Source of the DNA: Bdellovibrionales bacterium
GTDB lineage: Bacteria; Bdellovibrionota; Bdellovibrionia; Bdellovibrionales; UBA1609
Length of the DNA stretch: 32,000 bases
Assembly (NCBI GenBank): GCA_963692945.1
Contig: OY843585.1
Coordinates: 540,001-572,000 of the forward strand
Reading direction: 5' to 3'
The notes under the pieces were generated by a model. It saw only the letters and a program-made list of their open reading frames with translations. It did not search any database and had not been told where the DNA came from. Of this stretch, positions 1 to 30,064 are shown one piece after another. How positions within the stretch are numbered: position 1 is the first letter of the stretch; each line of letters starts with the position of its first letter. Made by a program: the position numbers and the translations under genes.

Positions 1-269
1 AATTGCAATCCTCCTCATGTGAGATTTTTTATAGAGGATAGAACTCTTTATTGGGAATATGGAACGCTTTATGTTGTAAACACTATAAAGCAACATTCCT
101 TGTTTAATGCAAGTTCAGCTCAAGACAGTATCTGGCTTATAATCAATGCCAGAGTTTGTGAAGAGTCCATTAACTTTGTATCAAGTCATTTTAAGGAGAA
201 TTAAATTTTATTTGTTAAGAATCGATAGATATCCTGATCAATAAGAGAGAGAGTTATAAAGAAGTAATT

Positions 270-968
270 ATGAATCAAGATTCAATTATTTATTACATGA
301 AAGGACTAGGAAAAGTTTTAAGATCGGAATATTTTAAAACTGAGCATTCAAGAGTTCTTCAAGATTTACAAGATGCTACTTCTTTTGGTCAAGTCCGATC
401 TAAAGAATGGATACTGCAAATTCTAAAAGAAAAAAATATAAAAGATTTAGGTCAAATTTTTTTATGTGCTGGTTGGTATGGATTCTTGGCTTTTCTTTTA
501 TTGCAAGATACTTTCTTTTCTATTAAAAATATTTTTCTTTTTGAGAAAGACGAGTTAAGTGTAAAAGTTTCAGAACATATAAATTATTATTTTGTTCAAC
601 AAGAATGGAAATTTAAATCCACTTTTAAAGATATTTTAGATATTAACTATTCAGGTGATACTTTTAAAACTTTAAAGCCTAATGGAGAATTTGAAAAGAT
701 ATTTTCAGATCCAGATACAATCATCAATACTTCTTGCGAGCATATTAAGCAATTTGATGATTGGTGGGGTAAAATTCCAACTAAGAAATTAGTTATTTTA
801 CAAAGTAATAATTACAAAGAACTTGAAGAGCATGTAAATTGTGTTTCTTCTTTGAAAGAATTTAAAGAAAAAGCACCTATGAATCATTTGATATATGCAG
901 GATCTTTAAATTTAGAAAAATATACAAAACTAAAATATATACGTTTCATGTTAATAGGTTATAAGTAA
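270..968 (+). CDS. Hypothetical protein, possibly a class I SAM-dependent methyltransferase-like Rossmann fold
   Basis: The 232-aa ORF is first in a co-directional cluster. A glycine-rich stretch IFLCAGWYGFLA is followed by LFEKDE (acidic end of beta-2) and DTIINTSCEHI, resembling MTase motifs I, II and IV. The similarity is weak and judged by eye. Confidence 0.5.
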   Translation: MNQDSIIYYMKGLGKVLRSEYFKTEHSRVLQDLQDATSFGQVRSKEWILQILKEKNIKDLGQIFLCAGWYGFLAFLLLQDTFFSIKNIFLFEKDELSVKVSEHINYYFVQQEWKFKSTFKDILDINYSGDTFKTLKPNGEFEKIFSDPDTIINTSCEHIKQFDDWWGKIPTKKLVILQSNNYKELEEHVNCVSSLKEFKEKAPMNHLIYAGSLNLEKYTKLKYIRFMLIGYK

Positions 969-1043
969 GGTTAAATAAAAAACAACAAAAAGTATTATAT
1001 TTTACATTTGACCTTAATTTAGTTATATTATAGGGCTAAGTCT

Positions 1044-2537
1044 ATGAATCAGAAACCTAAAGTGGATGATTATGCATTTAATATGTCTCAAAATGAGGGT
1101 GCACCATCTTCTTGGTGTGTTTTGCCTTGGTCTCATATCAGTATTAAGAGGGACGGACAATTTAGAGTCTGTTGTTCGAGTAATGTTAGTAAGAATAAAG
1201 GTCTTTTAAGAAATAAAGAAGGGATGCCTTTTCATATAAGTAAGGATAAATGGGATGCTATTTTAAATAGTGAGATGATGAAGAGAATACGTAAAAATAT
1301 GCTTCAAGGAAAATGGAGTGAAGAGTGTAGGGGATGTAAAATTGAATATGAAAGTGATATGAGATCTAGTAATATTTCAAAACGTCATTATTTGGCCCAT
1401 AGACTGAAGAGTTCAGAGTATCCAAATTATATAAAAGCTAAAAAGTTAACAAAAGAAGATGGTTCAATATCACTTAAAGATTTTTCTATATCTTATTTAG
1501 ATATACGTTTTGGAAATCATTGCAATTTAAAATGTATGATGTGTGGTCCATCAGCTAGTAATAAATGGTATCAAGAGTATAAGGATATTTGGAAAGATGA
1601 TTTTTTTTGGGACGGAGATCAAAAAATAGATTTTATAAAAGGCTTTAATGGGAAACTAAAGGTAAATAAGCATATTTACGATTGGAGTGATGATTCTCAT
1701 TTATGGTTAGAAATTGAAAAATATTTAAATCAAATTAAAAAAATTTATCTAGCTGGAGGAGAGCCTTTACTTATTAAAGCTCATTATGATTTTCTAAAAA
1801 AATGTATAACTAAAAAGATCGCTTCTGAGATAGAGATAAACTACAACAGTAATATTACTCATATTCCAGATAAAGTTTTAGTTTTATGGAAGCATTTTAA
1901 ATCTATTTGTGTGGGTATGAGTATAGATGGTGTTGGTGAAATTAATGAATTGATTAGATATCCAAGTGATTGGAAAGAAATAGAGAATAATATTTTACGG
2001 CTTGATCAAATTGGTGGAAACCTTTCATTAAGTATAACTTCCACAATAAGTGTTTTAAATATTTGGCATTTACCAAAATTTCTTAATTATATTATGAAAA
2101 AAAATTATAAAACAATAAACAACTGGAATCTTGAGTTATTAACTAAGCCTCTTCCTCTTCATCAGCCACCGTATTTAAATTTAAATATTCTAGAGGATTC
2201 TTTTAAGGAAAAAATTGTTAAATATTTTAAAAATTGTAAGGAAGAGGTGAGGGAGTTTGACTGGGAAATTTCCAACAAGGATAACAAAATAAAAAGATAC
2301 TGTGAGATATTAGATCAGTATATAAATTATATGTATCAAGTTAAGTATGAAGAAAAAGTTTTAAGAAGTCATAGGGGTCAATTTATTTATTTTATGGATA
2401 AATTAGATCGTTTGAGAGGAACAAATTGGTCTAAAGTGTTACCAGAACTTTATGAGTCTACATTAGAGTGGAGAGATATCCTTAAATTAAAATCTTTTGA
2501 TAAAAAGTTTATTTATAAATCAGTTAAAATAAATTAA
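1044..2537 (+). CDS. Radical SAM enzyme with an N-terminal twitch/SPASM-like cysteine domain (copy 1)
   Basis: The canonical CxxxCxxC motif is present (FGNHCNLKCMMCGP). The N-terminal Cys pattern CVLPWSHISIKRDGQFRVCC...EECRGC resembles the Cx..PW..I...G....C / CxxC signature of SPASM/twitch auxiliary-cluster domains. That domain is normally C-terminal. AGGEPLL is a SAM-binding GGEP-type motif. Confidence 0.85.
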   Translation: MNQKPKVDDYAFNMSQNEGAPSSWCVLPWSHISIKRDGQFRVCCSSNVSKNKGLLRNKEGMPFHISKDKWDAILNSEMMKRIRKNMLQGKWSEECRGCKIEYESDMRSSNISKRHYLAHRLKSSEYPNYIKAKKLTKEDGSISLKDFSISYLDIRFGNHCNLKCMMCGPSASNKWYQEYKDIWKDDFFWDGDQKIDFIKGFNGKLKVNKHIYDWSDDSHLWLEIEKYLNQIKKIYLAGGEPLLIKAHYDFLKKCITKKIASEIEINYNSNITHIPDKVLVLWKHFKSICVGMSIDGVGEINELIRYPSDWKEIENNILRLDQIGGNLSLSITSTISVLNIWHLPKFLNYIMKKNYKTINNWNLELLTKPLPLHQPPYLNLNILEDSFKEKIVKYFKNCKEEVREFDWEISNKDNKIKRYCEILDQYINYMYQVKYEEKVLRSHRGQFIYFMDKLDRLRGTNWSKVLPELYESTLEWRDILKLKSFDKKFIYKSVKIN

Positions 2538-2540
2538 TAA

Positions 2541-3575
2541 ATGAAAAATTTGTTTTTTTTGTTTTTATTAAGTGTTTCTACATCTTGTAAAAAAGAATGT
2601 TGGGATGATAATATAGATTTTATAAAAATGGAGGAACATTTTGTTACTGGAAAAGTAAAAAAAGAAATTCTATTTAATGATTATTTTCCAGAATATAAAA
2701 AACGGAAAAGAGAAAAATATAAAATCTTATTTTATGAAGGAAAAACAAAAAAGTCAGATGATATAATGGTTTTCGAAAAAGCTACAGATATTAAAAGTTT
2801 GAATAATTCTATATTTTTATATAATTTTTCTAAATATATGGAATTGTCTTTTATTCCACCTAGTGTGTTGGTGAAAAAAAAGTATGATTATCCTGTACTT
2901 TTACAACTTTTTATTAATCAACCTGTAAAAATTCTAGGGGAATTTGAAGATTTTAAAAATAAAATAAGTTTAGAGGATAAAAGTGATTTATATATTTTTA
3001 ATTTTATAGCTGGAAAACTGGATGTGAGTAAATGGAATTTATTATATGACCCAAAATGTAATAAAATTATTTCTATTGATAACGATTATAGAGAAATAAG
3101 TTATATTAAGTATGGAGATTATCCTTTTATTGCTCACAGAATTATAAATGAGAAAAGCCAATCTCTTTCTGTTAAGGACTATGAAAATTTTCCTCTTGAT
3201 AAAGTAACAAAATTAACAGTGTCTCAATTTTTTAATTCTATTGTATGGTCTAGTTTATCATATTCAGATAAAATTAAGAGGAGACATGCTAAAGAAATAA
3301 TGCGTAAAAATTATTTAACAGATGATAAGATTTATTATGTAAAATATAAGGGTAGATATTGGATCAAGGACAATAGAATAATACTAAGATATTTCTATAA
3401 AGAAATAGGTGGTATGACTAAAGTTTTTTCTAGAAAAACTATTGGTAAGTTAAAATCTCTTAATAGAGAAATGTTAAAAAAATTAAGTAACAATATTTTG
3501 AGTGAAGATGAAATTGTGGGAATTCTTTATAGGAGAGATATTATCTTAAAAGAATCTGAAAAAATAAACTTGTAA
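2541..3575 (+). CDS. Putative lipoprotein with an atypical (PI3/PI4-kinase-like) kinase catalytic motif
   Basis: The N-terminus MKNLFFLFLLSVSTSC has a signal peptide followed by a Cys. The internal segment FNFIAGKLDVSKWNLLYDPKCNKIISIDND resembles a DxxxxN catalytic loop plus an IDN metal-binding motif of atypical kinases. The ATG lies 4 nt after the upstream stop, so the gene is operonic. Confidence 0.6.
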   Translation: MKNLFFLFLLSVSTSCKKECWDDNIDFIKMEEHFVTGKVKKEILFNDYFPEYKKRKREKYKILFYEGKTKKSDDIMVFEKATDIKSLNNSIFLYNFSKYMELSFIPPSVLVKKKYDYPVLLQLFINQPVKILGEFEDFKNKISLEDKSDLYIFNFIAGKLDVSKWNLLYDPKCNKIISIDNDYREISYIKYGDYPFIAHRIINEKSQSLSVKDYENFPLDKVTKLTVSQFFNSIVWSSLSYSDKIKRRHAKEIMRKNYLTDDKIYYVKYKGRYWIKDNRIILRYFYKEIGGMTKVFSRKTIGKLKSLNREMLKKLSNNILSEDEIVGILYRRDIILKESEKINL

Positions 3576-3634
3576 TAACAAGTTTAAGAGAAATCTAATT
3601 GACCTTAATTTAGTTATATTATAGGGCTAAGTCT

Positions 3635-5128
3635 ATGGATCAGAAACCTAAACTGGATGATTATGCATTTAATATGTCTCAAAATGAGGGTGCACCATCT
3701 TCTTGGTGTGTTTTGCCTTGGTCTCATATTAATATTAAAGAGAAAGGGGAGTTTAGAATTTGTTGTCATAGTAACTCCAGTAAGAATAAAGGTCTTTTAA
3801 GAAATAAAGAAGGGATGCCTTTTCATATAAGTAAGGATAAATGGGATGCTATTTTCAATAGTGAGATGATGAAAAGAGTACGTAAAAATATGCTTCAAGG
3901 AAAATGGAGTGAAGAATGTAGGAGATGTAAAATTGAATATGAAAGTGATATGAGATCTAGAAACATTTGTGAGCGTAGTCACTTGGCCCATAGACTTAAG
4001 AGTTCAGAGTATCCAAATTATATAAAAGCTAAAAAGTTAACAAAAAAAGATGGTTCAATATTACTTAAAGATTTTTCTATATCTTATTTAGATATACGTT
4101 TTGGAAATCATTGCAATTTAAAATGTATGATGTGTGGTCCATCAGCTAGTAATAAATGGTATCAAGAGTATAAGGATATTTGGAAAGATGATTTTTTTTG
4201 GGACGGAGATCAAAAAATAGATTTTATAAAAGGCTTTAATGGGAAACTAAAGGTAAATAAGCATATTTACGATTGGAGTGATGATTCTCATTTATGGTTA
4301 GAAATTGAAAAATATTTAAATCAAGCTAAAGTCATTTATCTGGCTGGAGGAGAGCCTTTACTTATTAAAGCTCATTATGATTTTCTAAAAAAATGTATAA
4401 CTAAAAAGATCGCTTCTGAGGTATCGATAAACTACAACAGTAATATTACTCATATACCAGATAAAGTTTTAGTTTTATGGAAGCATTTTAAATCTATTTG
4501 TGTGGGTATGAGTATAGATGGTGTTGGTGAAATTAATGAATTGATTAGATATCCAAGTGATTGGAAAGAAATAGAGAATAATATTTTACGGCTTGATCAA
4601 ATTGGTGGAAACCTTTTATTAAGTATAACTTCCACAATAAGTGTTTTAAATATTTGGCATTTACCAAAATTTCTTAATTATATTATGAAAAAAAATTATA
4701 AAACAATAAACAACTGGAATGATAAATTATTATTAAACCCTCACCCTCTTCATCAGCCACCGTATTTAAATTTAAATATTCTAGAAGATTCTTTTAAGGA
4801 AAAAATTGTTAAATATTTTAAAAATTGTAAGGAAGAGGTGAGGGAGTTTGACTGGGAAATTTCCAACAAGGATAACAAAATAAAAAGATACTGTGAGATA
4901 CTAGATCAGTATATAAATTATATGTATCAAGTTAAGTATGAAGAAAAGGTTTTAAGAAGTCATAGGGGTCAATTTATTTATTTTATGGATAAATTAGATC
5001 GTTTGAGAGGAACAAATTGGTCTAAAGTGTTACCAGAACTTTATGAGTCTACATTAGAGTGGAGAGATATCCTTAAATTAAAATCTTTTGATAAAAAGTT
5101 TATTTATAAATCAGTTAAAATAAATTAA
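3635..5128 (+). CDS. Radical SAM enzyme with an N-terminal twitch/SPASM-like cysteine domain (copy 2, paralog of 1044..2537)
   Basis: Length is the same (497 aa), with about 29 substitutions versus copy 1 by manual alignment. The CNLKCMMC motif is identical. The upstream 36 bp and the downstream TAATAAATGAAAAATTT are also duplicated at an offset of 2,591 bp. Confidence 0.85.
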   Translation: MDQKPKLDDYAFNMSQNEGAPSSWCVLPWSHINIKEKGEFRICCHSNSSKNKGLLRNKEGMPFHISKDKWDAIFNSEMMKRVRKNMLQGKWSEECRRCKIEYESDMRSRNICERSHLAHRLKSSEYPNYIKAKKLTKKDGSILLKDFSISYLDIRFGNHCNLKCMMCGPSASNKWYQEYKDIWKDDFFWDGDQKIDFIKGFNGKLKVNKHIYDWSDDSHLWLEIEKYLNQAKVIYLAGGEPLLIKAHYDFLKKCITKKIASEVSINYNSNITHIPDKVLVLWKHFKSICVGMSIDGVGEINELIRYPSDWKEIENNILRLDQIGGNLLLSITSTISVLNIWHLPKFLNYIMKKNYKTINNWNDKLLLNPHPLHQPPYLNLNILEDSFKEKIVKYFKNCKEEVREFDWEISNKDNKIKRYCEILDQYINYMYQVKYEEKVLRSHRGQFIYFMDKLDRLRGTNWSKVLPELYESTLEWRDILKLKSFDKKFIYKSVKIN

Positions 5129-5131
5129 TAA

Positions 5132-6565
5132 ATGAAAAATTTAAAAAATCTCTTTAAACTTCATGTTTTGACAAAAGATTTGAGAGTGCCTTTTGATTTA
5201 AATATAGCACGTTCTCTTTTTTATTTTTTAGTTTTACAAAAAGTTTTAGAGCAAATTGATAGGTTTACAAATATAACCTATTCTTATCAGTCTTTTCTTA
5301 AAGTTTTTTGGACTCCAAGTTATTTATTTCAATTTTATCCTAGAGATTTATTATTATCTTGGGGAGAGATATATTTTATTTACTTACTTTTTTGCATTTC
5401 ACTTTTTTTCTGTATGATAGGTCTATATACAAGGTTTTTTAGTATCATTACTGCTATATTAGCACTTTTTTGTTTTGGATATATGCAACAGTTTGGAAAA
5501 ATTGACACAGAATTTACATTGCCTATTATTATTCTATTTGTTCTAGCATTTTTTTCTCAAATGAGTTCATCTTATTCATTACAAAATTTTTTAAAATTTA
5601 AGAATAAAAAAAAATTAATCAAAAGTTACGATTTATTTTGGAATCAGGTGACATTAAAATTCATATCAATCTTGCTTTTGCTTTTTTATTTTATAAGTGG
5701 TGTTCAAAAAATAAGATTTTCTGGTTTTGAATGGATTACAAAGGCTGAAATATTAAATGAAGCTCTTGTATGGCTTGGGCATCCTTATGGAGAGTATCTT
5801 GCACAGTTTCCTTCATGTGTGAAAATTCTTGCTTTTTTTGTTATACTTATTCAAATTTTATCTTTTATACCTATTATATTACCTCGTTTAATTCCTTATT
5901 GGGCCATTTTACTGGTTATTAGTTTTCATTTATTTTTGGATATGTTTATATCACAACATTATTTTTATCTTTATATTTACACATTTGTATTTTTAGTTCC
6001 ATGGTCAAGGCTCTTCTATATCTTATCTAGAGGAGAAATTAATATAGGTGGTTTATTAGAAAATTACTCTTTAATTTTTCTTTTTAAGAAAACTATCTTC
6101 AAACAAAGAATCCTTCTTTTAAAATTAATTGGAATAATAACTATTTTAGGATTTTTTATAGTAGCTCCAATTTTAGGAACTAAAAAATTATATCCTTTTC
6201 CAAAAATATCTATGTATTCTTATCCATTAGAAAGAGACAATCATGAGAATATAATAAAATTTTTTATATTTAAAAAAAATAAAAAAAGTAAGGATATTAT
6301 ATCTCATAATGAATTATGGCCTATCAGAAGAGATGTATTTATTTCTTATATAAAAAAACTTTACAAACAAAAAGAATATGAAAAAATTAAAATTATTATT
6401 AATAGGTTAAAAGAAAATCAGCCTTTCTTAATGAGATCAGATCTTAGCACTTTTAAGAATTATGATGAAATACTTATAGAGGCCTGTTATTGGAAAAATC
6501 TTGATATTTATTTTAAGAAAAAAAATCCAACAAATTGTGAAATTCTATTAAAAATAAAATTGTAA
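5132..6565 (+). CDS. Polytopic membrane protein, possibly HTTM (vitamin-K gamma-carboxylase-like) domain
   Basis: The 477-aa protein has many hydrophobic segments in its first ~340 aa. The N-terminal DLNIARSLFYFLVL resembles the D..sLA.FRi motif that opens HTTM domains. The C-terminal ~130 aa is a soluble Lys-rich domain. The family call is tentative. Confidence 0.6.
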   Translation: MKNLKNLFKLHVLTKDLRVPFDLNIARSLFYFLVLQKVLEQIDRFTNITYSYQSFLKVFWTPSYLFQFYPRDLLLSWGEIYFIYLLFCISLFFCMIGLYTRFFSIITAILALFCFGYMQQFGKIDTEFTLPIIILFVLAFFSQMSSSYSLQNFLKFKNKKKLIKSYDLFWNQVTLKFISILLLLFYFISGVQKIRFSGFEWITKAEILNEALVWLGHPYGEYLAQFPSCVKILAFFVILIQILSFIPIILPRLIPYWAILLVISFHLFLDMFISQHYFYLYIYTFVFLVPWSRLFYILSRGEINIGGLLENYSLIFLFKKTIFKQRILLLKLIGIITILGFFIVAPILGTKKLYPFPKISMYSYPLERDNHENIIKFFIFKKNKKSKDIISHNELWPIRRDVFISYIKKLYKQKEYEKIKIIINRLKENQPFLMRSDLSTFKNYDEILIEACYWKNLDIYFKKKNPTNCEILLKIKL

Positions 6566-6624
6566 ATGTCTAAAAAAAGACTTTTAATACTTGAAATTTT
6601 CATTTATATTTATACAATAAAAAA

Positions 6625-7173
6625 ATGGATATAGAATTAAGAAATAAACTAAAAGAGTATTGTATTCCACTTATGCCTCTACCAAAACCCTTACAGAATG
6701 TGGATTATGAAAAGTTGATACATATATTTGAACAAAATTCTTCTAAACTTAAAAAACTATCCTATAAACATACTATTAAAGGTACTAAAAAATCTATAGA
6801 TCAATTTTTTTATGAAATGTATTTTTCTTATCATGAATTTAATTATCTCTTTAAAGATATGATTCCCTTGAAGTGTCTAGGATATATGTATGTATATATA
6901 TCACCTAATTATGAAATACCTATCCACAAAGATACAGGATATGCAAAAACAAAATTGGGATTCTTTCTAAAAGGCAATGCTCCCATTCGTTTTTATCAAA
7001 ATGAGCATAGTTCTTCTTTTTTAGGTGAGTATAATTATGTATCTCCTTGTTGTATTAATGTGCTAAATTATCATAATGTTTCTAATAACCATTTAGAAAG
7101 ATTAACTTTTTTTCTTCAGTTTGAGGAAGATTATAAAGAAGTTTATAAAAAAGTAACAAATATTTATTCTTAA
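6625..7173 (+). CDS. Cupin/2OG-Fe(II) oxygenase-like protein (aspartyl/asparaginyl beta-hydroxylase / LpxO-like)
   Basis: An HxD motif (PIHKDTG) is followed by LGFFL, then NYHNVSNNHLERLTFFLQF. This resembles the H.v.N.s...R..L end of the Asp/Asn beta-hydroxylase family. Judged by eye only. Confidence 0.55.
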   Translation: MDIELRNKLKEYCIPLMPLPKPLQNVDYEKLIHIFEQNSSKLKKLSYKHTIKGTKKSIDQFFYEMYFSYHEFNYLFKDMIPLKCLGYMYVYISPNYEIPIHKDTGYAKTKLGFFLKGNAPIRFYQNEHSSSFLGEYNYVSPCCINVLNYHNVSNNHLERLTFFLQFEEDYKEVYKKVTNIYS

Positions 7174-7174
7174 A

Positions 7175-8083
7175 ATGATTTCTATCAATCATTTTAATAA
7201 GAAGACCTATGAAATTCCTGACAAAGAGATAGATTGTTTTCTTTCTAAAATCAATTCTTCCCAAGCTTTAAAATTTGTAAGAGATAAAAACACAGATAAA
7301 AAATTCATTGAGACTTATAGAAATTGGCTTTTTTCCAATAAAAATTATATGATGAATTCATTAGATGAAAAAAAATTTAATTCCTATATAATTTCTGGAA
7401 TAACACAAAGTTTCCATGATTTTTATCAAATACATCATAATAAAATTTTAAAAGTCAGACGAGGGGAGTATCCCTATCATAAGGTTTTTTTTAAATCTAT
7501 AGGAAGAAAATGGGGTTGGATTGAAGACGAGGGGCTTCATTCAAATGATTTTGTCATCATCTCTTATCCCTTTAGTGGTAATGGAAGTATAGGACATGAA
7601 ACTAAAGAGATTCTGAATTTATGCAATAGGTATCAAGTTCCTGTTTTATTAGATTGTTGTTTTTGGGGGTTATCTAGCCCCTTATCTATTGATTTAACAG
7701 AATATCCTTGCATTGAAATAGTTTCTTTTTCTTTATCAAAATTTTTTAATATTGGAAGATTACGTATAGGCATGATGTATTCTAAATATAAGGAACAGGC
7801 TTCAGGAGCTATCCTCGGTCCTTATAACTATGTCAATAGCTGGTCAGCTTATATTGCTTTTGAACTTATGAATCATTTTCCTATTAATTATATGTATAAT
7901 AAATACAGAAAGGCTCAAAAAGCAGTATGCAAAGAACTTCATATAGAGCCTTCAGAAACTTTATTTTTTGGATTAAGTAAAGAAGAAAAATGGAAAGATT
8001 TTTCTCGTGATGGAGTTTTTAATCGGATTTATCTTTCAGAGGCTATCTCTCAGTTTGTTCTTTCGCAGAGTATGGATAAATAA
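7175..8083 (+). CDS. PLP-dependent (aminotransferase class I/II fold-like) enzyme, short form
   Basis: VSFSLSKFFNIGRLRIGMMY matches the SxSK....G.R.G pyridoxal-lysine motif of fold-type I aminotransferases. The preceding VLLDCCFWG matches the acidic residue at the end of the beta-strand before the Lys. The start is 1 nt after the upstream stop. Confidence 0.6.
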   Translation: MISINHFNKKTYEIPDKEIDCFLSKINSSQALKFVRDKNTDKKFIETYRNWLFSNKNYMMNSLDEKKFNSYIISGITQSFHDFYQIHHNKILKVRRGEYPYHKVFFKSIGRKWGWIEDEGLHSNDFVIISYPFSGNGSIGHETKEILNLCNRYQVPVLLDCCFWGLSSPLSIDLTEYPCIEIVSFSLSKFFNIGRLRIGMMYSKYKEQASGAILGPYNYVNSWSAYIAFELMNHFPINYMYNKYRKAQKAVCKELHIEPSETLFFGLSKEEKWKDFSRDGVFNRIYLSEAISQFVLSQSMDK

Positions 8084-8150: not shown

Positions 8151-8510
8151 TTAACTTGCTTTTTCAAAGTATTTGCTTTGATTTTTCAAATCTATCAGAT
8201 CAATAATACCTGTTATTTCTTTTCGGGTTCTGCTTTTTTTCCATTTTAAAACTTGATTGAGTATTTTTTTGTTAAGACTCTTCATGAGTTGAGAAATAGT
8301 TTCTCCTGAAGTATGTGAAAAGAAAGTTTTTTTATTTGTTTTGATTTCTAATTTGCCTATAAATTTATTTTTTTGATACTGCAAATCTATACGAATGACA
8401 GAATTGCAAGGGATTTTTTGAACGAGAGTATCTACCATGTTTTGAATGACTCTGTTTTGTTTTTGGTTCAGATTATAATGATGTGTAAAAATTTGAAAAT
8501 TTTCTAACAT
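8151..8510 (-). CDS. hpf: Ribosome hibernation/HPF-RaiA (S30AE) family-like protein
   Basis: The 119-aa ORF has a strong AGGAGG RBS 7 nt upstream of the ATG. Its alternating beta-alpha-beta pattern and C-terminal basic helix (KKILNQVLKWKKSRTRK) resemble HPF/YfiA. Confidence 0.5.
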   Translation of the reverse strand: MLENFQIFTHHYNLNQKQNRVIQNMVDTLVQKIPCNSVIRIDLQYQKNKFIGKLEIKTNKKTFFSHTSGETISQLMKSLNKKILNQVLKWKKSRTRKEITGIIDLIDLKNQSKYFEKAS

Positions 8511-13452: not shown

Positions 13453-13800
13453 GGGGGTGTATTGGCTTCGACGTGGGTCATGACGCTTTTGGGAGCATGT
13501 AGAGGTTGCACAAGGTCCTCTTTAAAAATGTGTGTTTTTTAAACGGCAATTCTGTTGCCTTTGCTGCCTAATTTAGTGTAGCCGTTGAACCAAATTTTGG
13601 TGATGGATTTGGGGAAGCGACGCTTTTATCACCTCGGTCTTTCATTTTGTCTCAGGGTTAAAGACTTAAATTTATGAGAAAACAATCAATAGAACTTTGT
13701 TCTTGGAGGTCTATTGATTTAATAAAACAAGAAACAAACATGTAGTTGCCTGAAAGAAGATTTCTTGCGGACATGGGTTCAATTCCCATCACCTCCACCA
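13453..13800 (+). ncRNA. ssrA: tmRNA (SsrA)
   Basis: The 5' end GGGGGTGTATTGGCTTCGACG pairs with the 3' end CACCTCCACCA to give a tRNA-Ala-like acceptor stem with a G3:U70 wobble. A T-arm GGGTTCAATTCCC is present. The internal tag reading frame is ...GGC AAT TCT GTT GCC TTT GCT GCC TAA (ends 13571), giving ...GNSVAFAA*. Confidence 0.93.
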
Positions 13801-14845: not shown

Positions 14846-15361
14846 CAAAACTCTCGTTCATTTCTAATACCCTTTTCTTTTTAGGAGATTTTCGTCGTAG
14901 GAGGGATACTCCTCAAACACCTAAAAAGAAAAGGATTCTTATTATTTGAACTAGAGAAAACCTACTGGTTTTCGCATTCTGGTTTTCGCATGAGGGGCTT
15001 TGTTCTTCAAATCTCGTTAAAATAAGAGTTGCTTAACAGGATTATATTGAACTAGAGAAAACCTACTGGTTTTCGCATGAGTGAACTAGAGAAAAACTGC
15101 TGGTTTTTGCATATAAGTCTTTATTGTTTGAACTAGAGAAAACCTACTGGTTTTCGCATGAGGGGCTTTGTTTTTCAGATCTCGTTAAAATAAGAGTTGC
15201 TTAACAGGATTATATTGAACTAGAGAAAAACTGCTGTTTTTCGCATATAAGTCTTTATTGTTTGAACTAGAGTTTTGGAAATGGAATTAGAGAAAACCTA
15301 CTGGTTTTTGCATGAGTGAACTAGAGAAAACCTACTGGTTTTTGCATACTGGTTTTCGCAA
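14846..15361. repeat. Nested or tandem array of the modular intergenic repeat family (locus C)
   Basis: About 7 copies of GAACTAGAGAAAACCTACTGGTTTTCGCAT and variants start near 14947, 15049, 15083, 15130, 15217, 15285 and 15317. They are interleaved with two copies of a ~55-bp module (..TTCAAATCTCGTTAAAATAAGAGTTGCTTAACAGGATTATATT). A 15-bp hairpin lies at 14871-14885 / 14920-14934. Confidence 0.85.
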
Positions 15362-15378
15362 AGGAAATTCTAAACAAT

Positions 15379-16005
15379 TTATTTTGTGCCATCATGTTTA
15401 TGTTGAAGATCTTTTCTTTGATCTATAGACCATACATCTAATCGACCTCCACCTAAATCTGCACAAGCTAAAGCGGTGTATTGTTTGTATTTACCACTTG
15501 TTAGTTTAACTTTTGCTTTCAAGCTTCCAGTGATACAAGCTCCACTTAAGTTTTTAACAGCTGTGTTTTTAGTAGAATTATTAGATTCTTTTAAAAAACA
15601 TTCAGTACTACTTCCTGAAGCAAAATCTTTACCACAAACTTCAAAGGTGTTGGAATTGCCTGTACCATTAGCAGTTCCTCCTATTGCACAATCTGGAATC
15701 CCAGATGTAGGACAACTCGTTCCTCCATCAATAGGGCTTTTGTCAAAACCTACATTGTAAATGTATTTTCCTACGAGGTCTAAATTGATGGCCTCTAAAT
15801 TATAATGATAGTTATTGTTATCTATATAAAAAATTCTCTCATTGCCATACAAATTGGAGAGCAATATTTTGGCTTCTGTTGTTTTTCCTTGTCTTTTTGT
15901 TTTCATAAAACTGATAACAGCCATAGAAGAAAGAATGGCTATGATACTTACCACAGTAAGTAGTTCAATGAGAGAGAAACCTTTGGACTTGTTGATAGAA
16001 TACAT
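15379..16005 (-). CDS. Type IV pilin (PilA/PilE-like), prepilin-type N-terminus
   Basis: MYSINKSKG|FSLIELLTVVSIIAILSSMAV shows a class III signal, with Gly-1, Phe+1 and Glu+5, followed by the hydrophobic alpha1-N helix. The C-terminal half contains several Cys. Confidence 0.85.
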   Translation of the reverse strand: MYSINKSKGFSLIELLTVVSIIAILSSMAVISFMKTKRQGKTTEAKILLSNLYGNERIFYIDNNNYHYNLEAINLDLVGKYIYNVGFDKSPIDGGTSCPTSGIPDCAIGGTANGTGNSNTFEVCGKDFASGSSTECFLKESNNSTKNTAVKNLSGACITGSLKAKVKLTSGKYKQYTALACADLGGGRLDVWSIDQRKDLQHKHDGTK

Positions 16006-16103
16006 CTTATCTTTTTATAGCATTATTTTGTTATGTTTTATCTATTTATTTTTTTATACTCAACATCCGTCCTAATTTTTTGTTAGTGATTGATAGCTAG
16101 GTT

Positions 16104-17474
16104 TTATAATTTTTGTTTTCCTTTCATTCTTTGAAAGAGTTTCTTTATAAAACCTTGTTTTTCAGAGTTAGATTTAATGTGAGCAGTCTCGGCATTGACA
16201 ACAAGACTCTTCTTTGTTGCTTTAGGTTTAGAAATCACTTTCACTCTATTTTCAGGAATAGGAGTGAACCACATATCAATAACATGTCCTTTTTGTTCAA
16301 CTCCCTTCTTGTTCACAAAAATAAAATTAGACTTTTCAATCTCTTTTGCTCTTTTACCATATTCCACCTGAGAACTTTCATAATCTAAAGAGATTTGTTT
16401 GATTTTTTGATTTAAAGGAATTTGTTCGGTTTTTTCTCCCACTCCGTTTCTATTGACATCTTTCCATAAAACCAGTTGAGAAAAAACTTTATCTTTAGCA
16501 TTGATTTGATTGTCTTTATTAGAGTCAAAATCTTTTAAAGATTCAAATCCATTTTCGTAAACAGTGTCTAAGCCTGTATTTCCAAATAACTCATAAGCCT
16601 CTGTTATTTTTCCATCTTTATTTTGATCTAAAGCTATAAAATAACCAGGGGAGTCTTTCTCCGGCCATGTGACATAGCGATTGTTTTCCATAAGAGGAAA
16701 AGTACTTAACCCTGTAAAGAGAGGTCTTTGTTGATTAAAGAAAACCATTAGAGGAGAGGTGTAGTATCTACAACCCGAAGCACTGCTTGTTGTTTTTATA
16801 GGAATGGATAAACCGATGGTAACGCTACCTGCTCTGGAAGTAAGGTCATCAAGGTTAGGGGAGTAAGATACACCTAGATGTCCTTTTTTACCCCAAGTCG
16901 TCCAAAGACTCAAAGCCGATACTGCATCACCTCTTCGTTGCCTAACTTCTACAGACCTAGTTTTATCTCTTCGTTCTATACGGGCACTTGGAACAAACTG
17001 TACAGTTATATGGTTTCTATCTCCAGAAGCTCGGTAATTTCCAGTCGCTAATACACTAGCCGTTGCTCTGTAATTGTCAGTCCAAGCTGCAGAAGCGATT
17101 TCATAAACTTTAGTTGCACGACTGTCACTAATAGTCTTGCTTATTCTTGAATGAACAAGTGCAGAAGGGAATTCAAAAACAATATATTTTTTATTATCGG
17201 CAGAATCAACAACTGGCATTCCAATAACAATATGAGTTGATCTATCAAGATTAAGAGGTGATCCTCCCCATCTTGAGTTTGTAGATATACATATAGCGGA
17301 GATACTTGTTGTTACTTTATGGTCTATAAAAACCTTTTTATCTTCTGGTGGTTCAGGAATATCAGCAGTGCTTGCTACACCTCCCCAATCTCCTCCTGTG
17401 CTTGTCTGGATGCTCACTGCAGAAAAAGCGTTTATTGAAGTAACACTCAAAAATAAAATAATAATTTTTTTCAT
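16104..17474 (-). CDS. Secreted protein with C-terminal EF-hand-like calcium-binding DxNxDG loops (candidate PilY1-like or adhesin accessory)
   Basis: A signal peptide (MKKIIILFLSVTSINAFSA) and an AGGAG RBS are present. DQNKDGKITEAYELFGN, DFDSNKDNQINAKDKVF and DVNRNGVGEKTE match DxDxDG-type Ca loops. The gene sits between pilin genes. Confidence 0.7.
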   Translation of the reverse strand: MKKIIILFLSVTSINAFSAVSIQTSTGGDWGGVASTADIPEPPEDKKVFIDHKVTTSISAICISTNSRWGGSPLNLDRSTHIVIGMPVVDSADNKKYIVFEFPSALVHSRISKTISDSRATKVYEIASAAWTDNYRATASVLATGNYRASGDRNHITVQFVPSARIERRDKTRSVEVRQRRGDAVSALSLWTTWGKKGHLGVSYSPNLDDLTSRAGSVTIGLSIPIKTTSSASGCRYYTSPLMVFFNQQRPLFTGLSTFPLMENNRYVTWPEKDSPGYFIALDQNKDGKITEAYELFGNTGLDTVYENGFESLKDFDSNKDNQINAKDKVFSQLVLWKDVNRNGVGEKTEQIPLNQKIKQISLDYESSQVEYGKRAKEIEKSNFIFVNKKGVEQKGHVIDMWFTPIPENRVKVISKPKATKKSLVVNAETAHIKSNSEKQGFIKKLFQRMKGKQKL

Positions 17475-17642: not shown

Positions 17643-18614
17643 TTAAGGGAGGAACTCAAAAGAGATTTTGATTTGAGTGTTGGTCACATCGGTTCTTTTA
17701 AATTTCATATGTTTCATATTATTTGCAAATAAAAAGCCATTGCTTTGATCGCAATTTAAAGATGTATTTTTATCTTTTACTATGCAGTGGTAAATGTCAT
17801 TATCTTTCATGGAATAGATAGAGATATGAATAATTCCAGCAAGAACCACATCCTGACCTCCAATAAGATGAGAGTTCAAAACAAAATCTTTTATGTTTCC
17901 ATAACTGGTTCCTCCAACGGCAGGGTTTAAAAAATTAAAATGAGACCCCATTCTGGTGTATTTTGTTACTGAAGGAGTATCGCTATGATGTCTTACTTTA
18001 GGGCAACTTGAAGTGTGATTCTTTGTTCCCATATAACCTAGAAAAGCAGGTTTTCTTGGAAAATCATTCATATTTAAAGGACGAGCGTTTCTTAAAAAAG
18101 CAGGAATATATAAAAGCACAAGTCCATTGTTTTTCCATAAATAGTTTAGTTCTTGTCTTAAATAACAATCATTAAAATAAGCATCATTCGGAGTTACGGT
18201 ATTGATGAGGTCATCATAGTAATAATTAAAAAATTCCATAATATTGACACGTTTTACATTTTTAATGGATAGAAATAAAAACTTCTTGTTATTTTCTAAA
18301 GTAAAAATTCTATTTTTATGGGTTAAGCTGAAGGAGTGATAATCTGGTAATACATCAAAAAAGTTTTTATTATTATCATCTTTAACATTTAAAATGCCAT
18401 AAGAGACGGCTATATTTTCAAGAGAGGTGTATAAAAATTTATTCAACCATTCTTCAGTGATTTTTTTATCCGCTTTTTTCTCAATATTCTTACCTTCTTT
18501 TGTTACCAATTGTAAAATGGATACAGAACCTAAAGTTACAAAAGCGAACATAGCAGCTGCAACTATAAGTTCTACAATAGAAAAACCTTTATTTTTTTGT
18601 ATAGATAATTTCAT
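17643..18614 (-). CDS. Minor (pseudo)pilin, PilW/PilV-like, prepilin-type N-terminus
   Basis: MKLSIQKNKG|FSIVELIVAAAMFAFVTLG has Gly-1, Phe+1 and Glu+5. The protein is 323 aa and lies in the pilin operon. Confidence 0.75.
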   Translation of the reverse strand: MKLSIQKNKGFSIVELIVAAAMFAFVTLGSVSILQLVTKEGKNIEKKADKKITEEWLNKFLYTSLENIAVSYGILNVKDDNNKNFFDVLPDYHSFSLTHKNRIFTLENNKKFLFLSIKNVKRVNIMEFFNYYYDDLINTVTPNDAYFNDCYLRQELNYLWKNNGLVLLYIPAFLRNARPLNMNDFPRKPAFLGYMGTKNHTSSCPKVRHHSDTPSVTKYTRMGSHFNFLNPAVGGTSYGNIKDFVLNSHLIGGQDVVLAGIIHISIYSMKDNDIYHCIVKDKNTSLNCDQSNGFLFANNMKHMKFKRTDVTNTQIKISFEFLP

Positions 18615-18634: not shown

Positions 18635-19147
18635 TTAATTTAAAGGAAGAAGCATTTTTAAATCCAAGAAAGCTTTATAAGAGTAAGAGTTTGGAGTACT
18701 TCCTGTTTGTCTTTCAATGCCTACAATCCAAATTTTAAAAAGACCTCGTGTATTTGAAAGAGGTATGAGTGACAGCCCTATGCGACTTTCACAATGAGGG
18801 CAGTCCTCTGCTTTTATAATATCTCCCTTAGAATCTATGGCAAAAGCCAAAACATCAAAAACAGCTGGATTGGCTGATATATGGGATTGCTCTGTATTTG
18901 CAATACCTGCAAAACCACTTTTTCCAGGAGGATAAAATTGATAATTGTTAGAATGAGATAGAAGAGATTGCACAATATAAGCTGCACTTTTAGAAGCTAA
19001 AGAAGCATCGGAAACATCTTCTATTTGTTTTGTGACTCCTGATAGAAAACTGATAAGAGCTGTAAAAATAGTTAAAACAATAGCAGAGCTGATTAAGATT
19101 TCTACTATACCTACACCTTTGTTATTTTTTAGAAATTGAACAAACAT
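18635..19147 (-). CDS. Minor (pseudo)pilin, prepilin-type N-terminus
   Basis: MFVQFLKNNKG|VGIVEILISSAIVLTIF has Glu+5. The ATG at 19147 overlaps the TGA of the giant upstream gene by 1 nt. The track start at 19150 is a TTG one codon earlier. Confidence 0.75.
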   Translation of the reverse strand: MFVQFLKNNKGVGIVEILISSAIVLTIFTALISFLSGVTKQIEDVSDASLASKSAAYIVQSLLSHSNNYQFYPPGKSGFAGIANTEQSHISANPAVFDVLAFAIDSKGDIIKAEDCPHCESRIGLSLIPLSNTRGLFKIWIVGIERQTGSTPNSYSYKAFLDLKMLLPLN

Positions 19148-22100
19148 CAATTTAGAGTTCCTTTCTTTAAAATAGGCCGACTTATAAATTTTCTTATATA
19201 AAATTTACAACTTACTCTTCTACTATTTTCATCTATGTGAGCACAATCTGGATCTACCGAAGTCCAAGTGAAAGGGTCTGCTTCTTTCATTAAACCAACA
19301 GGATTACAACTAAGAGAGGTTGCTCGGTTTTCAGGGTGAATGGGATTGCCAAGAAAGTTTTTATTATTATTACAATCTGATTTTGAAAGTGTTGTGTCTG
19401 TTCCGACTACATATTCATCACCTTTTGTTAAAATTTTCTGATCTCTTAATTCATAAAGAGCTTGAGCTTGCCAAATACTACCCCAAGTGACTCCATGTTG
19501 AAGGGCGGTTTTATGCACATTCAGTTGAGAGCTTATAACTGTCCCTATGATACGAAGAGGAGTGGTTCTTTGTTCTATAGTGAATTTATCACAAACAAAG
19601 AAACCCGTCACAAAATCAGCCGTGCTTTTAACTATGCAATGACCAAAGAGAGCCTTATTTTGAAATCTAAAATTTACACCAGAGCGAGTTGCATTTTTAT
19701 CATCAAGTATGAAAAGGCTTTTGTCAGTCCCTCTGTCTGTAAAATCCCAAGAGCTTCTAGTGAAAGGACTTAAATCAAAAAACCAATCTAAGCTGCCTAT
19801 AAAATTTTCTGGATCTTCAGTAGGGCAATGTTCGGATGTTATAAGTAAAGGAGTTGTTGAACGGTTGAGATCACTCGGGTCTTTAGCGAGCTGTCCTTTA
19901 TTATTCTGTCCCCAGCAGTAGAGTTTAGCTTTATTATCAGTGGGTAGGACTTGAATGGCACAGGTGTGGGAATATCCAGTTGAGACCTGTTTAATGTTTT
20001 GGTTTTGAAAAGCATTTGTTGTTTCCGTTCCATTTTTAACGAGTTTGGGTTTTTTGCGAGGACTTGTAGTGGTGCCATCTCCGATCTGTCCATAGAAATT
20101 ATGTCCCCAGCAGTAAAGTTTGCCTGCTTGAATGGCACAGGTGTGGAATCTTCCAGTTGAGACTGATGTGACATTTTGATTTTGAAAAGCACCTGAAACG
20201 GATGAAACGAGTTTGGGTTTTTTGCGATTATTTGTGTTGCCAGTGGTGCCATCTCCGATCTGTCCTTGGTTATTCCGTCCCCAGCAGTAAAGTTTTCCAG
20301 CTTGAATGGCACAGGTGTGGAAATCTCCAGTTGAGACTGATGTGACATTTTGATTTTGAAAAGCACCTGAAACGGATGAAACGAGTTTGGGTTTTTTGCG
20401 ATTATTTATGCTGTCATAGGTACCATCTCCGATCTGTCCATAGAGATTATCTCCCCAGCAATAAAGTTTTTGGTTTTGGATGGCACAAGTGTGGTCAAGT
20501 CCAGTTGAGACCGATTGGACGTTTTGGTTTTGAAAAGGATTGGTTGTTTCCGTTCCATTTAAAATGAGTGTGGGGCTTGCGCGACGATCTGTAGTGCCAT
20601 CTCCGATCTGTCCATGGTTATTCTGTCCCCAGCAGTAAAGTTTTTGGTTTTGAATGGCACAGGTGTGGGAACCTCCAGTTGAGACCTGTTTAATGTTTTG
20701 GTTTTGAAAACCACTTGAACGGGATCGCAAGAAGTAGGGTCTTAGTGTTGGGATAGGAGTTAAGCGGCCATCTCCGATCTGTCCATGGTTATTCTGTCCC
20801 CAGCAGTAAAGTTTTTGGTTTTGAATGGCACAGGTGTGGGAACCTCCAGTTGAGACCTGTGTTATGTTTTTTTCTGGAAAAAAGTTTTTTTCTACATTTA
20901 ATAAATGTACATCATCTGTGTTACCAATTCCTAATTGCCCTGAAGCATTATATCCCCAACATATATTTTTAGATACACTATTACCATCATCATCATATGC
21001 AATGCTAAAACAAGTATGATTTGCTCCTGTATCAAAAACATAAGTGGAACTTGGAAATGTAACTTTCACAGCTTTCTTTTTATTATCTGTGGTGCCATCT
21101 CCGAGTTGTCCCGAGCCATTCCGTCCCCAGCAGTAAAGTTTTTGGTTTTGAATGGCACAGGTGTGGTGATATCCAGTTGAGACTGATGTGACATTTTGAT
21201 TTTGAAAAGCACCTGAAACGGATAAAACGAGTTTGGGTTTGTTGCGATTATTTGTGTTGCCAGTGGTGCCATCTCCGAGTTGTCCGTAGTTATTCCGTCC
21301 CCAGCAGTAAAGTTTTTGGTTTTGGATGGCACAGGTGTGGTTACCTCCAGTTGAGACCGAATCCATTTGGATATTTTGGTTTTGAAAAGCATTTGTTGTT
21401 TCCGTGCCATCTGCAACGAGTTTGGGTTTGTTGCGATTATTTGTGTTGCCAGTGGTGCCATCTCCGAGTTGTCCGTAGTTATTCCGTCCCCAGCAGTAAA
21501 GTTTTTGGTTTTGAATGGCACAGGTGTGGTGATATCCAGTTGAGACTGATGTGACATTTTGATTTTGAAAAGCATTTGTTGTTTCCGTGTCATTTGCAAC
21601 GAGGGTGGGTGTGCGATGATTAAATGTGTAGCCAGTGGTGCCATCTCCGAGTTGTCCATAGGTATTATCTCCCCAGCAGTAAAGTCTTCCAGCTTGAATG
21701 GCACAGGTGTTGTTAACTCCAGTTGAGACTTTTGTTACGTTTTGGTTTTGAAAAGCATTTGTTGTTTCCGTGCCATCTGCAACGAGTTTGGGTTTTGTGT
21801 GTTGATTTACTGTGTTGCCATCTCCGAGTCTTCCATAGTTATTTTTTCCCCAGCAGTAAAGTCTTCCAGCTTGAATGGCACAGGTGTAGTCACTTCCAGC
21901 TGAGACTTTTGTTACGTTTTGGTTTTCAAAAGCATTGGTTCCTCCTGTTGTGCCATCTGCAACAAGTGTGGGTTTGTTGCGATAATTTGTGCTGCCATAG
22001 GTACCATCTCCGATCTGTCCATATTCATTACGTCCCCAGCAGTAAAGTCTTCCAGCTTGAATGGCACAGGTGTGTACACTTCCATTTGAGACTTTTGTTA

Positions 22101-30022: not shown

Positions 30023-30064
30023 TAAATGCTAATAACCTCAAAACTTCTAAAAATCGGTGTTTTT

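Follow-up and report, generated by a model that had tools for sequence, protein, structure and literature searches.

We analyzed a window of 32,000 nucleotides (nt) from the genome of a Bdellovibrionales bacterium (assembly GCA_963692945.1, contig OY843585.1, positions 540,001 to 572,000 of the forward strand), and focused on a cluster of seven genes, g1 to g7, at its left end. Two of these genes encode radical S-adenosylmethionine (rSAM) enzymes, one encodes a polytopic membrane protein with an HTTM-family core, and one a shortened protein of the pyridoxal phosphate (PLP) type. An earlier note, made from the DNA letters alone, had called the cluster unusual in that it combined these four genes with three others, which it described as methyltransferase-like (g1), kinase-like (g3), and AspH-like (g6).

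Layout and products of the cluster

Seven plus-strand open reading frames (ORFs) lie within 270-8083, all at the coordinates given in the earlier note. They are listed here together with the partial gene upstream and the two copies of a duplicated segment.

1-204, plus strand: partial upstream gene, last 67 codons; the gene runs past the left window edge
270-968, plus strand: g1, 232 amino acids (aa), no assignable fold
1008-2552, plus strand: copy 1 of the rSAM duplication, 1.545 kb
1044-2537, plus strand: g2, 497 aa, radical SAM enzyme, family NF033640
2541-3575, plus strand: g3, 344 aa, orphan with a signal-like N-terminus
3599-5143, plus strand: copy 2 of the rSAM duplication, 1.545 kb
3635-5128, plus strand: g4, 497 aa, radical SAM enzyme, paralogue of g2
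5132-6565, plus strand: g5, 477 aa, polytopic membrane protein with an HTTM-family core
6625-7173, plus strand: g6, 182 aa, orphan
7175-8083, plus strand: g7, 302 aa, shortened fold-type-I PLP-type protein

From g1 to g7, the gaps between genes were, in order, 75, 3, 59, 3, 59, and 1 nt. The genes were therefore co-directional, as the earlier note had it, but its range of 1-70 nt for the gaps was too narrow, the largest being 75 nt. No credible intrinsic terminator was found between the cluster genes. Three junctions with intervals of 1-3 nt, together with this lack of a terminator between genes, argued for co-transcription, and the seven ORFs form one predicted operon. Its right boundary was a convergent gene (8151-8510, minus strand). 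On the left, frame +1 was uninterrupted from the first base of the window as far as the stop at 204, and since the gene ending there runs off the window, the cluster is probably cut by the left window edge. The earlier note had set aside an ORF at 19..204 as an unconvincing precursor peptide. The ORF is no free-standing mini-ORF: it is the 3' tail of the upstream gene.

The G+C content of the cluster was 22-29%, as compared with 30-35% in the flanks. G+C at third codon positions (GC3) ranged from 0.15 to 0.22 in the cluster genes and equaled that of the housekeeping genes of the window (mlaDEF, tuf, dciA). The low G+C was considered as a sign of a horizontally acquired island, and this was rejected because GC3 matched the housekeeping genes; the low G+C reflects amino-acid composition and not a foreign origin. 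All cluster ORFs were intact and showed native codon usage.

The g2 and g4 products scored 344.8 and 336.7 bits, respectively, against NF033640 (N_Twi_rSAM; cut-off 170), over profile positions 2-396 of 398. In g2, Pfam placed a SPASM domain at residues 25-99 and a Radical_SAM domain at residues 155-344. The motifs C160xxxC164xxC167 and GGEP (238-241) were present in both proteins and invariant in 30 homologues. Among the same homologues, the N-terminal cysteines C95 and C98 were invariant, and C25, C43, and C44 were conserved in at least 90%. With NF033640 scores well above cut-off and both Pfam domains found, the earlier assignment of two radical SAM enzymes was confirmed. Both proteins are classed, from these motifs, as radical SAM enzymes with an N-terminal twitch/SPASM-like auxiliary cluster, the binding of which is predicted. 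Viperin, a nucleotide-modifying enzyme, was the best match among solved rSAM cores (E=4.5e-6), and SkfB was also among the nearest. Neither a PDB search nor the literature searched yielded a solved or characterised member of NF033640. The closest rSAM homologues were ~50% identical and came from metagenome-assembled genomes of 1.5-2.5 Mb, with several paralogues per genome.

The two rSAM proteins shared 469 of 497 residues (94%), and their coding regions were 95.8% identical at the nucleotide level. A repeat search and pairwise alignment showed that the duplicated unit begins 36 nt 5' of the rSAM ATG and ends 15 nt beyond the stop. Because the unit extends past the rSAM stop, g3 and g5 both start with MKNL. 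The last 180 nt of the two copies were identical, and g3 sits between the copies. We read g2 and g4 as a recent duplication. The 29 amino-acid differences between them fell into five patches (residues 33-48, 109-116, 231-233, 263-264, and 363-370). The ratio of nonsynonymous to synonymous substitution rates (dN/dS) was 0.38 overall and ~0.77 for codons 130-380, and the catalytic cysteines were all intact in g4. This patchy pattern suggests either diversified substrate-contact regions or mosaic gene conversion.

The membrane protein g5, when searched alone, gave no match to Pfam HTTM (PF05090) even at E<=10, and a word-index homology search returned only g5 itself. An exhaustive HMMER search gave 318 relatives. 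Forty homologues were used for the family profile and alignment; 8 of these 40 matched PF05090 directly (best 4.7e-13), and 3 of the 40 matched LMF1. Searched against the PDB, the g5-family profile retrieved human GGCX, the gamma-glutamyl carboxylase that depends on vitamin K (residues 51-306 of 758, E=5e-13). The HTTM relationship proposed in the earlier note thus stood at the level of the profile only, the single sequence giving no match. In g5, the HTTM core spanned approximately residues 20-300 and was followed by a C-terminal extension kept in close relatives. A hydropathy scan flagged 8 windows; as some overlap, we count ~6-8 hydrophobic segments.

Lysine 218 is the catalytic base of GGCX. 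The lysine of g5 that aligned with it, K193, was invariant in the family (40/40; residues counted on the HMMER alignment). In the structure of GGCX, N159 and H160 hold the substrate Glu (PMC12647623). The columns aligned with these two residues were not conserved in the g5 family, and D125 and T126 of g5 occupied the two columns just before. Since N159 and H160 are unconserved and the match stops at residue 306, g5 is a member of the HTTM superfamily and not an orthologue of GGCX.

As for g7, it passed the cut-off of PF00155 (Aminotran_1_2) by little (20.1 bits against 19.7), and the match covered residues 125-205 only. D160, the motif SFSLSK189, and R197 were invariant in six of six family members, that is, g7 and five homologues from related loci. 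We take Lys189 to be the Schiff-base lysine, D160 the aspartate that contacts the pyridine nitrogen, and R197 the phosphate-binding arginine. A PDB search with the single g7 sequence gave chance-level matches only, whereas the g7-family profile retrieved the aminotransferase 3if2 (E=0.0017) and 1-aminocyclopropane-1-carboxylate (ACC) synthase (E=0.011). The motif region (PF..G, D, SLSK) aligned with the corresponding motifs of 3if2. Family members were 279-366 aa long, ~90 residues were alignable to aminotransferases, and the full-length architecture of ~360-450 aa, which includes an N-terminal arm and a small C-terminal domain, was not found. What the earlier note had called a PLP enzyme is, on the PF00155 score and the invariant motifs, weakly assigned to fold type I, but is not a full-length enzyme of that type.

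The other three proteins, g1, g3, and g6, had no Pfam or NCBIfam match at E<=0.1, nor any in Pfam up to E<=10. For g1, the PDB gave chance-level matches with the single sequence and nothing with a two-sequence profile. Aligned with hhalign to two class I methyltransferase alignments from related loci, g1 reached a probability of ~0.1%. Its single homologue was a 186-aa protein in the related locus L021 (7448-8008; 40% identity, E=1e-25), the gene of which overlaps an N_Twi rSAM gene at the start of the latter. Both proteins carry the motifs GGWxG and IINTSCEH, and g1 appears to be a partner of a g2-type rSAM enzyme. Its description as methyltransferase-like found no support from profile searches, the PDB, or hhalign, the glycine-rich GGWxG motif being the one piece of evidence for it.

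The N-terminus of g3 was a hydrophobic, signal-like segment ending in Cys16 with an imperfect lipobox, and the protein appears to be exported. No relative of g3 was found in related loci, its PDB matches were at chance level, and JGI metagenomes held relatives of neither g1 nor g3. Single-sequence AlphaFold2 models were unusable, with a predicted local distance difference test (pLDDT) of 36 for g3 and 33 for g6. The label kinase-like had no Pfam, NCBIfam, or PDB match behind it. A search of 5.8 billion proteins with g6 returned only g6 itself, and PDB matches were again at chance level. Its likeness to AspH came down to a resemblance to the motif HxD...H. The three labels (AspH-like for g6, kinase-like for g3, methyltransferase-like for g1) remain motif impressions.

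AspH-family signals, both of them sub-threshold, came only from two other genes. The partial upstream gene (1-204) matched PF05118 with E=0.05 and 13.9 bits (cut-off 22.6), its residues 4-47 aligning to positions 109-151/157 of the model, at the C-terminal end, and it may possibly encode a cupin of the AspH type (Asp_Arg_Hydrox). In L021, a gene at 15067-15729 also matched PF05118 weakly (E=0.0013). This gene overlaps the start of a nucleoside diphosphate (NDP)-sugar epimerase gene inside an rSAM array, the two together spanning 15067-16643. It showed no significant similarity to g6. We also considered the upstream partial ORF and g6 as paralogous cupins, and dropped the idea as neither BLAST nor phmmer gave significant similarity.

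A module shared by related loci

Related loci, numbered here with an L, were compared with the window. A module composed of an HTTM protein, one or more N_Twi rSAM enzymes, and a g7-type protein was seen in ~15 loci. All three kinds of genes were adjacent in L006, L007, L009, L011, and L022/L023, the last two being near-identical, and adjacent pairs of g7-type and rSAM genes occurred in L005, L010, and L012-L017. A g5-type HTTM gene lay beside rSAM genes in all six loci found to carry one besides the window (L006, L007, L009, L011, L022, and L023). Likewise, the genes of the closest g5 relatives, P0123 (47%), P0124 (34%), and P0127 (27%), each had N_Twi rSAM genes as direct neighbors, along with g7-type genes (one or two). 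The typical order was HTTM, rSAM, g7-like, rSAM, g7-like, rSAM (L007, L009, and L011), and the rSAMs of these core strings all belonged to NF033640. On clustering the proteins of the loci, we obtained 48 rSAM genes, 17 g7-type genes in 12 loci, 6 HTTM genes, and a recurrent short-chain dehydrogenase/reductase (SDR). In a small recurrent family, F6, one member had a sub-threshold methyltransferase match.

A scan for the g7 family in one genome per GTDB species gave 8 loci, all from Bdellovibrionales, Oligoflexia, or Bdellovibrio. In all 8, rSAM genes adjoined the g7-type gene, and one of the carriers was an isolate, Bdellovibrio sp. HCB2-146 (L013). The g7 protein thus founds a previously unrecognised PLP-like family, restricted to Bdellovibrionota and always encoded beside N_Twi rSAM genes.

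Several loci were richer still in rSAM genes. In L003, L005, L018/L019, and L021, 5-11 different rSAM genes were packed into arrays of 12-17 kb. Arrays of this kind often enclose the module, and they also held a B12-binding rSAM gene, PP-loop/QueC-like genes, and genes for small proteins. The arrays appear to be a larger phenomenon than the window cluster and one that is undescribed. Two of the related loci, L016 (2643-4280) and L017 (3544-4614), were nearly the same locus, except that an insertion sequence (DDE_Tnp_1) interrupted a 356-aa gene upstream of the rSAM/g7-like array.

Could the window cluster be a chance string and not one pathway? It would then be a hypervariable series of rSAM paralogues and fast-evolving orphans, of which only the adjacency of g5, g7, and the rSAM genes is functional. 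Indeed, g3 and g6 had no detectable homologue and g1 had one, the g2/g4 duplication is recent with g3 caught between its copies, and close rSAM homologues stood in quite different contexts (L001, L004, and L020). Yet three junctions had gaps of 1-3 nt and no terminators were seen, the ORFs were intact with native codon usage, and the adjacency of g1 and an rSAM gene was kept in the distant locus L021. We consider a chance string very unlikely. The window operon is better described, from these gene orders, as a lineage-specific version of a Bdellovibrionota module, with g3 and g6 as extras. No description of an HTTM/rSAM/PLP module was found in the literature searched.

Candidate substrate and proposed steps

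We tentatively favor, with somewhat less than even confidence, an undescribed tailoring module that most likely acts on a sugar-derived or envelope substrate rather than on a peptide. The evidence came from a search for peptide-maturation genes, from the neighbors of the module in related loci, and from a comparison with known systems.

A peptide substrate was the first possibility to weigh. In a modification of the type of peptides made on ribosomes and modified after translation (RiPPs) or of gamma-carboxyglutamate (Gla) proteins, the HTTM protein would carboxylate Glu or Asp in a secreted protein or peptide, the rSAM enzymes would introduce cross-links or other radical-based changes, and g3 and g6 would add further modifications, the substrate being encoded elsewhere or upstream. 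The characterised HTTM enzymes do target peptidyl residues only, Glu for GGCX and an aspartyl residue of a polyketide-nonribosomal peptide intermediate for MloH, a bacterial HTTM enzyme working in a biosynthetic cluster. SdpB, which has been linked to toxin maturation and whose SdpAB system helps to mature a secreted peptide, is also an HTTM protein. SPASM/twitch rSAM enzymes are typically peptide maturases, and the module shares rSAMs with auxiliary Fe-S domains with the RiPP maturases SkfB, PapB, and HxsBC. SkfB was among the nearest solved structures, a weak AspH-family signal adjoins the cluster, and g3 appears to be exported.

Against a peptide, a comparison of the window cluster with L001-L015 showed no small intergenic ORF that was conserved, whether within the loci or next to them; hits from an unfiltered all-ORF comparison were rejected as shadow ORFs inside conserved genes. 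The statement of the earlier note that no convincing precursor peptide is present thus holds for the window and extends to L001-L015. No RRE/PqqD, leader protease, or peptide exporter domain was matched in any scanned gene, and the module therefore differs from RiPP clusters in having no precursor, RRE, leader peptidase, or ATP-binding cassette (ABC) exporter found for it. In addition, g5 matched only the HTTM core of GGCX, without the conserved N159/H160 columns, and the pairing of PLP-like and rSAM genes in sugar-gene contexts has no counterpart in known RiPP clusters. Taken together, this makes a peptide substrate unlikely in our view.

The sugar-gene contexts were the following. In L013, a string of overlapping genes encoded a UDP-glucose 6-dehydrogenase, an NDP-sugar SDR epimerase/dehydratase, a 303-aa protein, and a g7-like protein (junction overlaps of 4, 4, and 22 nt). 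The UDP-glucose 6-dehydrogenase scored 460 bits to TuaD and, with the general model for NDP-sugar dehydrogenases, passed the cut-off, and the g7-like gene is the g7-type gene most like that of the window. A fragment resembling DegT/DesI, another epimerase, a polysaccharide lyase, and a lipid hydroxylase like OlsE were encoded alongside. In L022/L023, a g7-like gene, three rSAM genes, a glycosyltransferase gene of the GT-C type (PMT_2/PMT, ArnT-like, E=6e-5), and one of family GT2 were carried on one strand. In L001, the g2 homologue (51% identical) comes after an NTP_transferase and a transaldolase-like gene, and the rSAM array of L021 includes an NDP-sugar epimerase.

Known pathways offer partial parallels to this arrangement. 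In the synthesis of 2-deoxystreptamine (BtrN/BtrR) and desosamine (DesI/DesII), a twitch or plain rSAM enzyme and a PLP aminotransferase act as a pair, their substrate being a cyclitol or NDP-sugar. The module resembles them in that its twitch rSAM is repeatedly paired, gene by gene, with a PLP-fold protein, and in L013 this pair is accompanied by Ugd and an NDP-sugar SDR. It differs in that the twitch-like cysteine cluster is N-terminal (NF033640) and not C-terminal, and in that g7, at ~300 aa, is class I/II-like and not of the DegT type. At the level of sequence, we detected no orthology to any of BtrN, BtrR, DesI, and DesII. In the Arn pathway, which adds aminoarabinose to lipid A, the enzymes are Ugd, ArnA, ArnB, ArnC (GT2), and ArnT (GT-C), with no known role for an rSAM or HTTM protein. 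Likeness to it was confined to related loci, with Ugd, an NDP-sugar SDR, and a PLP protein in L013, and GT2 and a PMT/ArnT-like GT-C in L022/L023. None of its genes is in the window cluster, no examined locus held the whole Arn set, and NCBIfam scores against ArnA and ArnB fell far short of the cut-offs. Finally, g5 resembles GGCX in its polytopic HTTM core and in the lysine equivalent to K218 (40/40 relatives), and departs from it beyond ~306, where it is unmatched and has a C-terminal extension of its own, at Q151, which stands for D183, and at the unconserved N159/H160. The genomic partners of the module, rSAM enzymes and a PLP-like protein, also set it apart from GGCX and MloH. The module is not a GGCX orthologue system, a recognised RiPP class, or a known lipopolysaccharide (LPS) or Arn locus. 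With each of these it has superfamilies and a plausible logic in common. The cluster is also no well-known locus for polysaccharide or LPS; glycosyltransferase, nucleotide-sugar, and Wzx/Wzy-type genes were absent from 1-8083, and such genes occurred only in L013, L022/L023, L021, and L001. Among the substrates that the earlier note had considered, an envelope lipid or glycan is now better supported by context, and the analogy with modification of Gla/epidermal growth factor (EGF)-like proteins less so.

Another possibility was a diffusible small molecule, for example one derived from an aminocyclitol, a nucleoside, or an amino acid and serving predation. The rSAM enzymes would build its scaffold, the PLP protein would work on an amino-acid-like intermediate, and the HTTM protein would carboxylate or export it. 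Several observations fit: the arrays of 5-11 rSAM genes come with SDR, B12-rSAM, PP-loop/QueC-like, and S-adenosylhomocysteine (AdoHcy) hydrolase genes (L003, L005, L016-L018, and L021), and the nearest matches of the g7 profile are amino-acid aminotransferases and ACC synthase, for which SAM is a substrate. Moreover, MloH is a precedent for an HTTM protein in secondary metabolism, and BtrN/BtrR for a twitch rSAM enzyme acting with an aminotransferase. No polyketide synthase, nonribosomal peptide synthetase, resistance, or regulator genes were seen, however, the GT2, GT-C, and Ugd neighbors suggest polymer or lipid-linked products, and the module lies among housekeeping genes with the normal GC3 of the genome. 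As with the peptide, we assign a low probability to a small molecule.

For the sugar-derived or envelope substrate that we favor, what we infer about the kind of substrate, the sequence of steps, and the chemistry of the HTTM protein is as follows. The likeliest substrate would be a sugar, linked to a nucleotide or a polyprenyl and destined for a glycoconjugate or lipid of the envelope. In a first step, in the cytoplasm, the rSAM paralogues, with g1 as a partner, would abstract hydrogen via 5'-deoxyadenosyl radicals, and the substrate would be oxidised, dehydrated, or rearranged, the twitch cluster taking up the extra electron as in BtrN. In a second step, g7 would aminate or otherwise process the resulting carbonyl, following the logic of BtrN/BtrR or DesI/DesII. 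In a third, g5 would act on the membrane-bound product by means of its invariant lysine, and by analogy with GGCX and MloH, this could be a carboxylation driven by quinol and O2. In a fourth, g3 would serve as an exported accessory protein.

Several points weigh against this proposal. Three of the seven genes (g1, g3, and g6) are without an assignable fold. Neither Pfam nor NCBIfam detected a glycosyltransferase, nucleotide-sugar, Wzx/Wzy-type, or lipid gene in window 1-8083, and it is only in related loci, with proteins 23-36% identical, that a sugar context is seen. The g7 profile resembles class I/II amino-acid aminotransferases and ACC synthases and not the DegT sugar aminotransferases. 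At the position of GGCX D183, g5 has Q151, whereas 37 of 40 relatives have Asp. As noted above, GGCX and MloH act on peptidyl Glu or Asp. Last, the other NCBIfam matches of the rSAM enzymes were mostly peptide maturases (PapB, SkfB, HxsC, and DynA), all far below cut-offs, these named families scoring 10-40 bits against cut-offs of 300-650.

A bolder claim would be that the module represents a new biosynthetic system of Bdellovibrionota, in which a membrane enzyme of the vitamin K carboxylase type acts on a sugar- or lipid-linked, non-peptide substrate prepared by several rSAM enzymes. We regard this as doubtful at present.

Rest of the window and significance

The remaining window was an ordinary Gram-negative chromosome, with DciA, MlaDEF, pseudopilins, transfer-messenger RNA (tmRNA), tRNAs, and EF-Tu. 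The following features were observed.

8151-8510, minus strand: the convergent gene next to g7, 119 aa, without family match; by eye it looks loosely RaiA/ribosome-hibernation-like
13453-13800, plus strand: tmRNA, 154 bits, predicted tag peptide GNSVAFAA
14765, 23783, and 27153: tRNA-Gly(TCC), tRNA-Thr(GGT), and tRNA-Trp(CCA), respectively
15379-16005 and 17643-18614: genes with type IV pilin-like N-terminal methylation motifs
19147-23631, minus strand: 1494-aa protein with ~13 RCC1 repeats
27556-28842, minus strand, and 30026-31354, plus strand: DNA N6/N4 methyltransferase-Mrr-type nuclease fusion beside a STAND/KAP-type P-loop NTPase

The RCC1 gene had a G+C content of 38.5% and a GC3 of 0.31, clearly above its neighbors, and lies directly 3' of the genes with pilin-like motifs and in the same orientation. 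The methyltransferase-Mrr/NTPase pair, close to tuf and tRNA-Trp, may represent a small defence island.

HTTM and NF033640 are two large families with almost no biochemistry behind either, and in the literature searched, MloH alone among bacterial HTTM proteins had a defined reaction. Our analysis shows a genetic coupling of the two families with each other and with a PLP-like family not recognised before, and this coupling is conserved across Bdellovibrionota. The cultured carrier Bdellovibrio sp. HCB2-146 (L013) offers a testable entry to bacterial HTTM function, to the products of rSAM arrays, and to the question whether predatory bacteria have unrecognised envelope or metabolite chemistry. 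If the bolder claim made above held, the module would yield a new class of envelope decoration or of metabolite related to predation, and HTTM proteins and NF033640 enzymes would each gain a new type of reaction.

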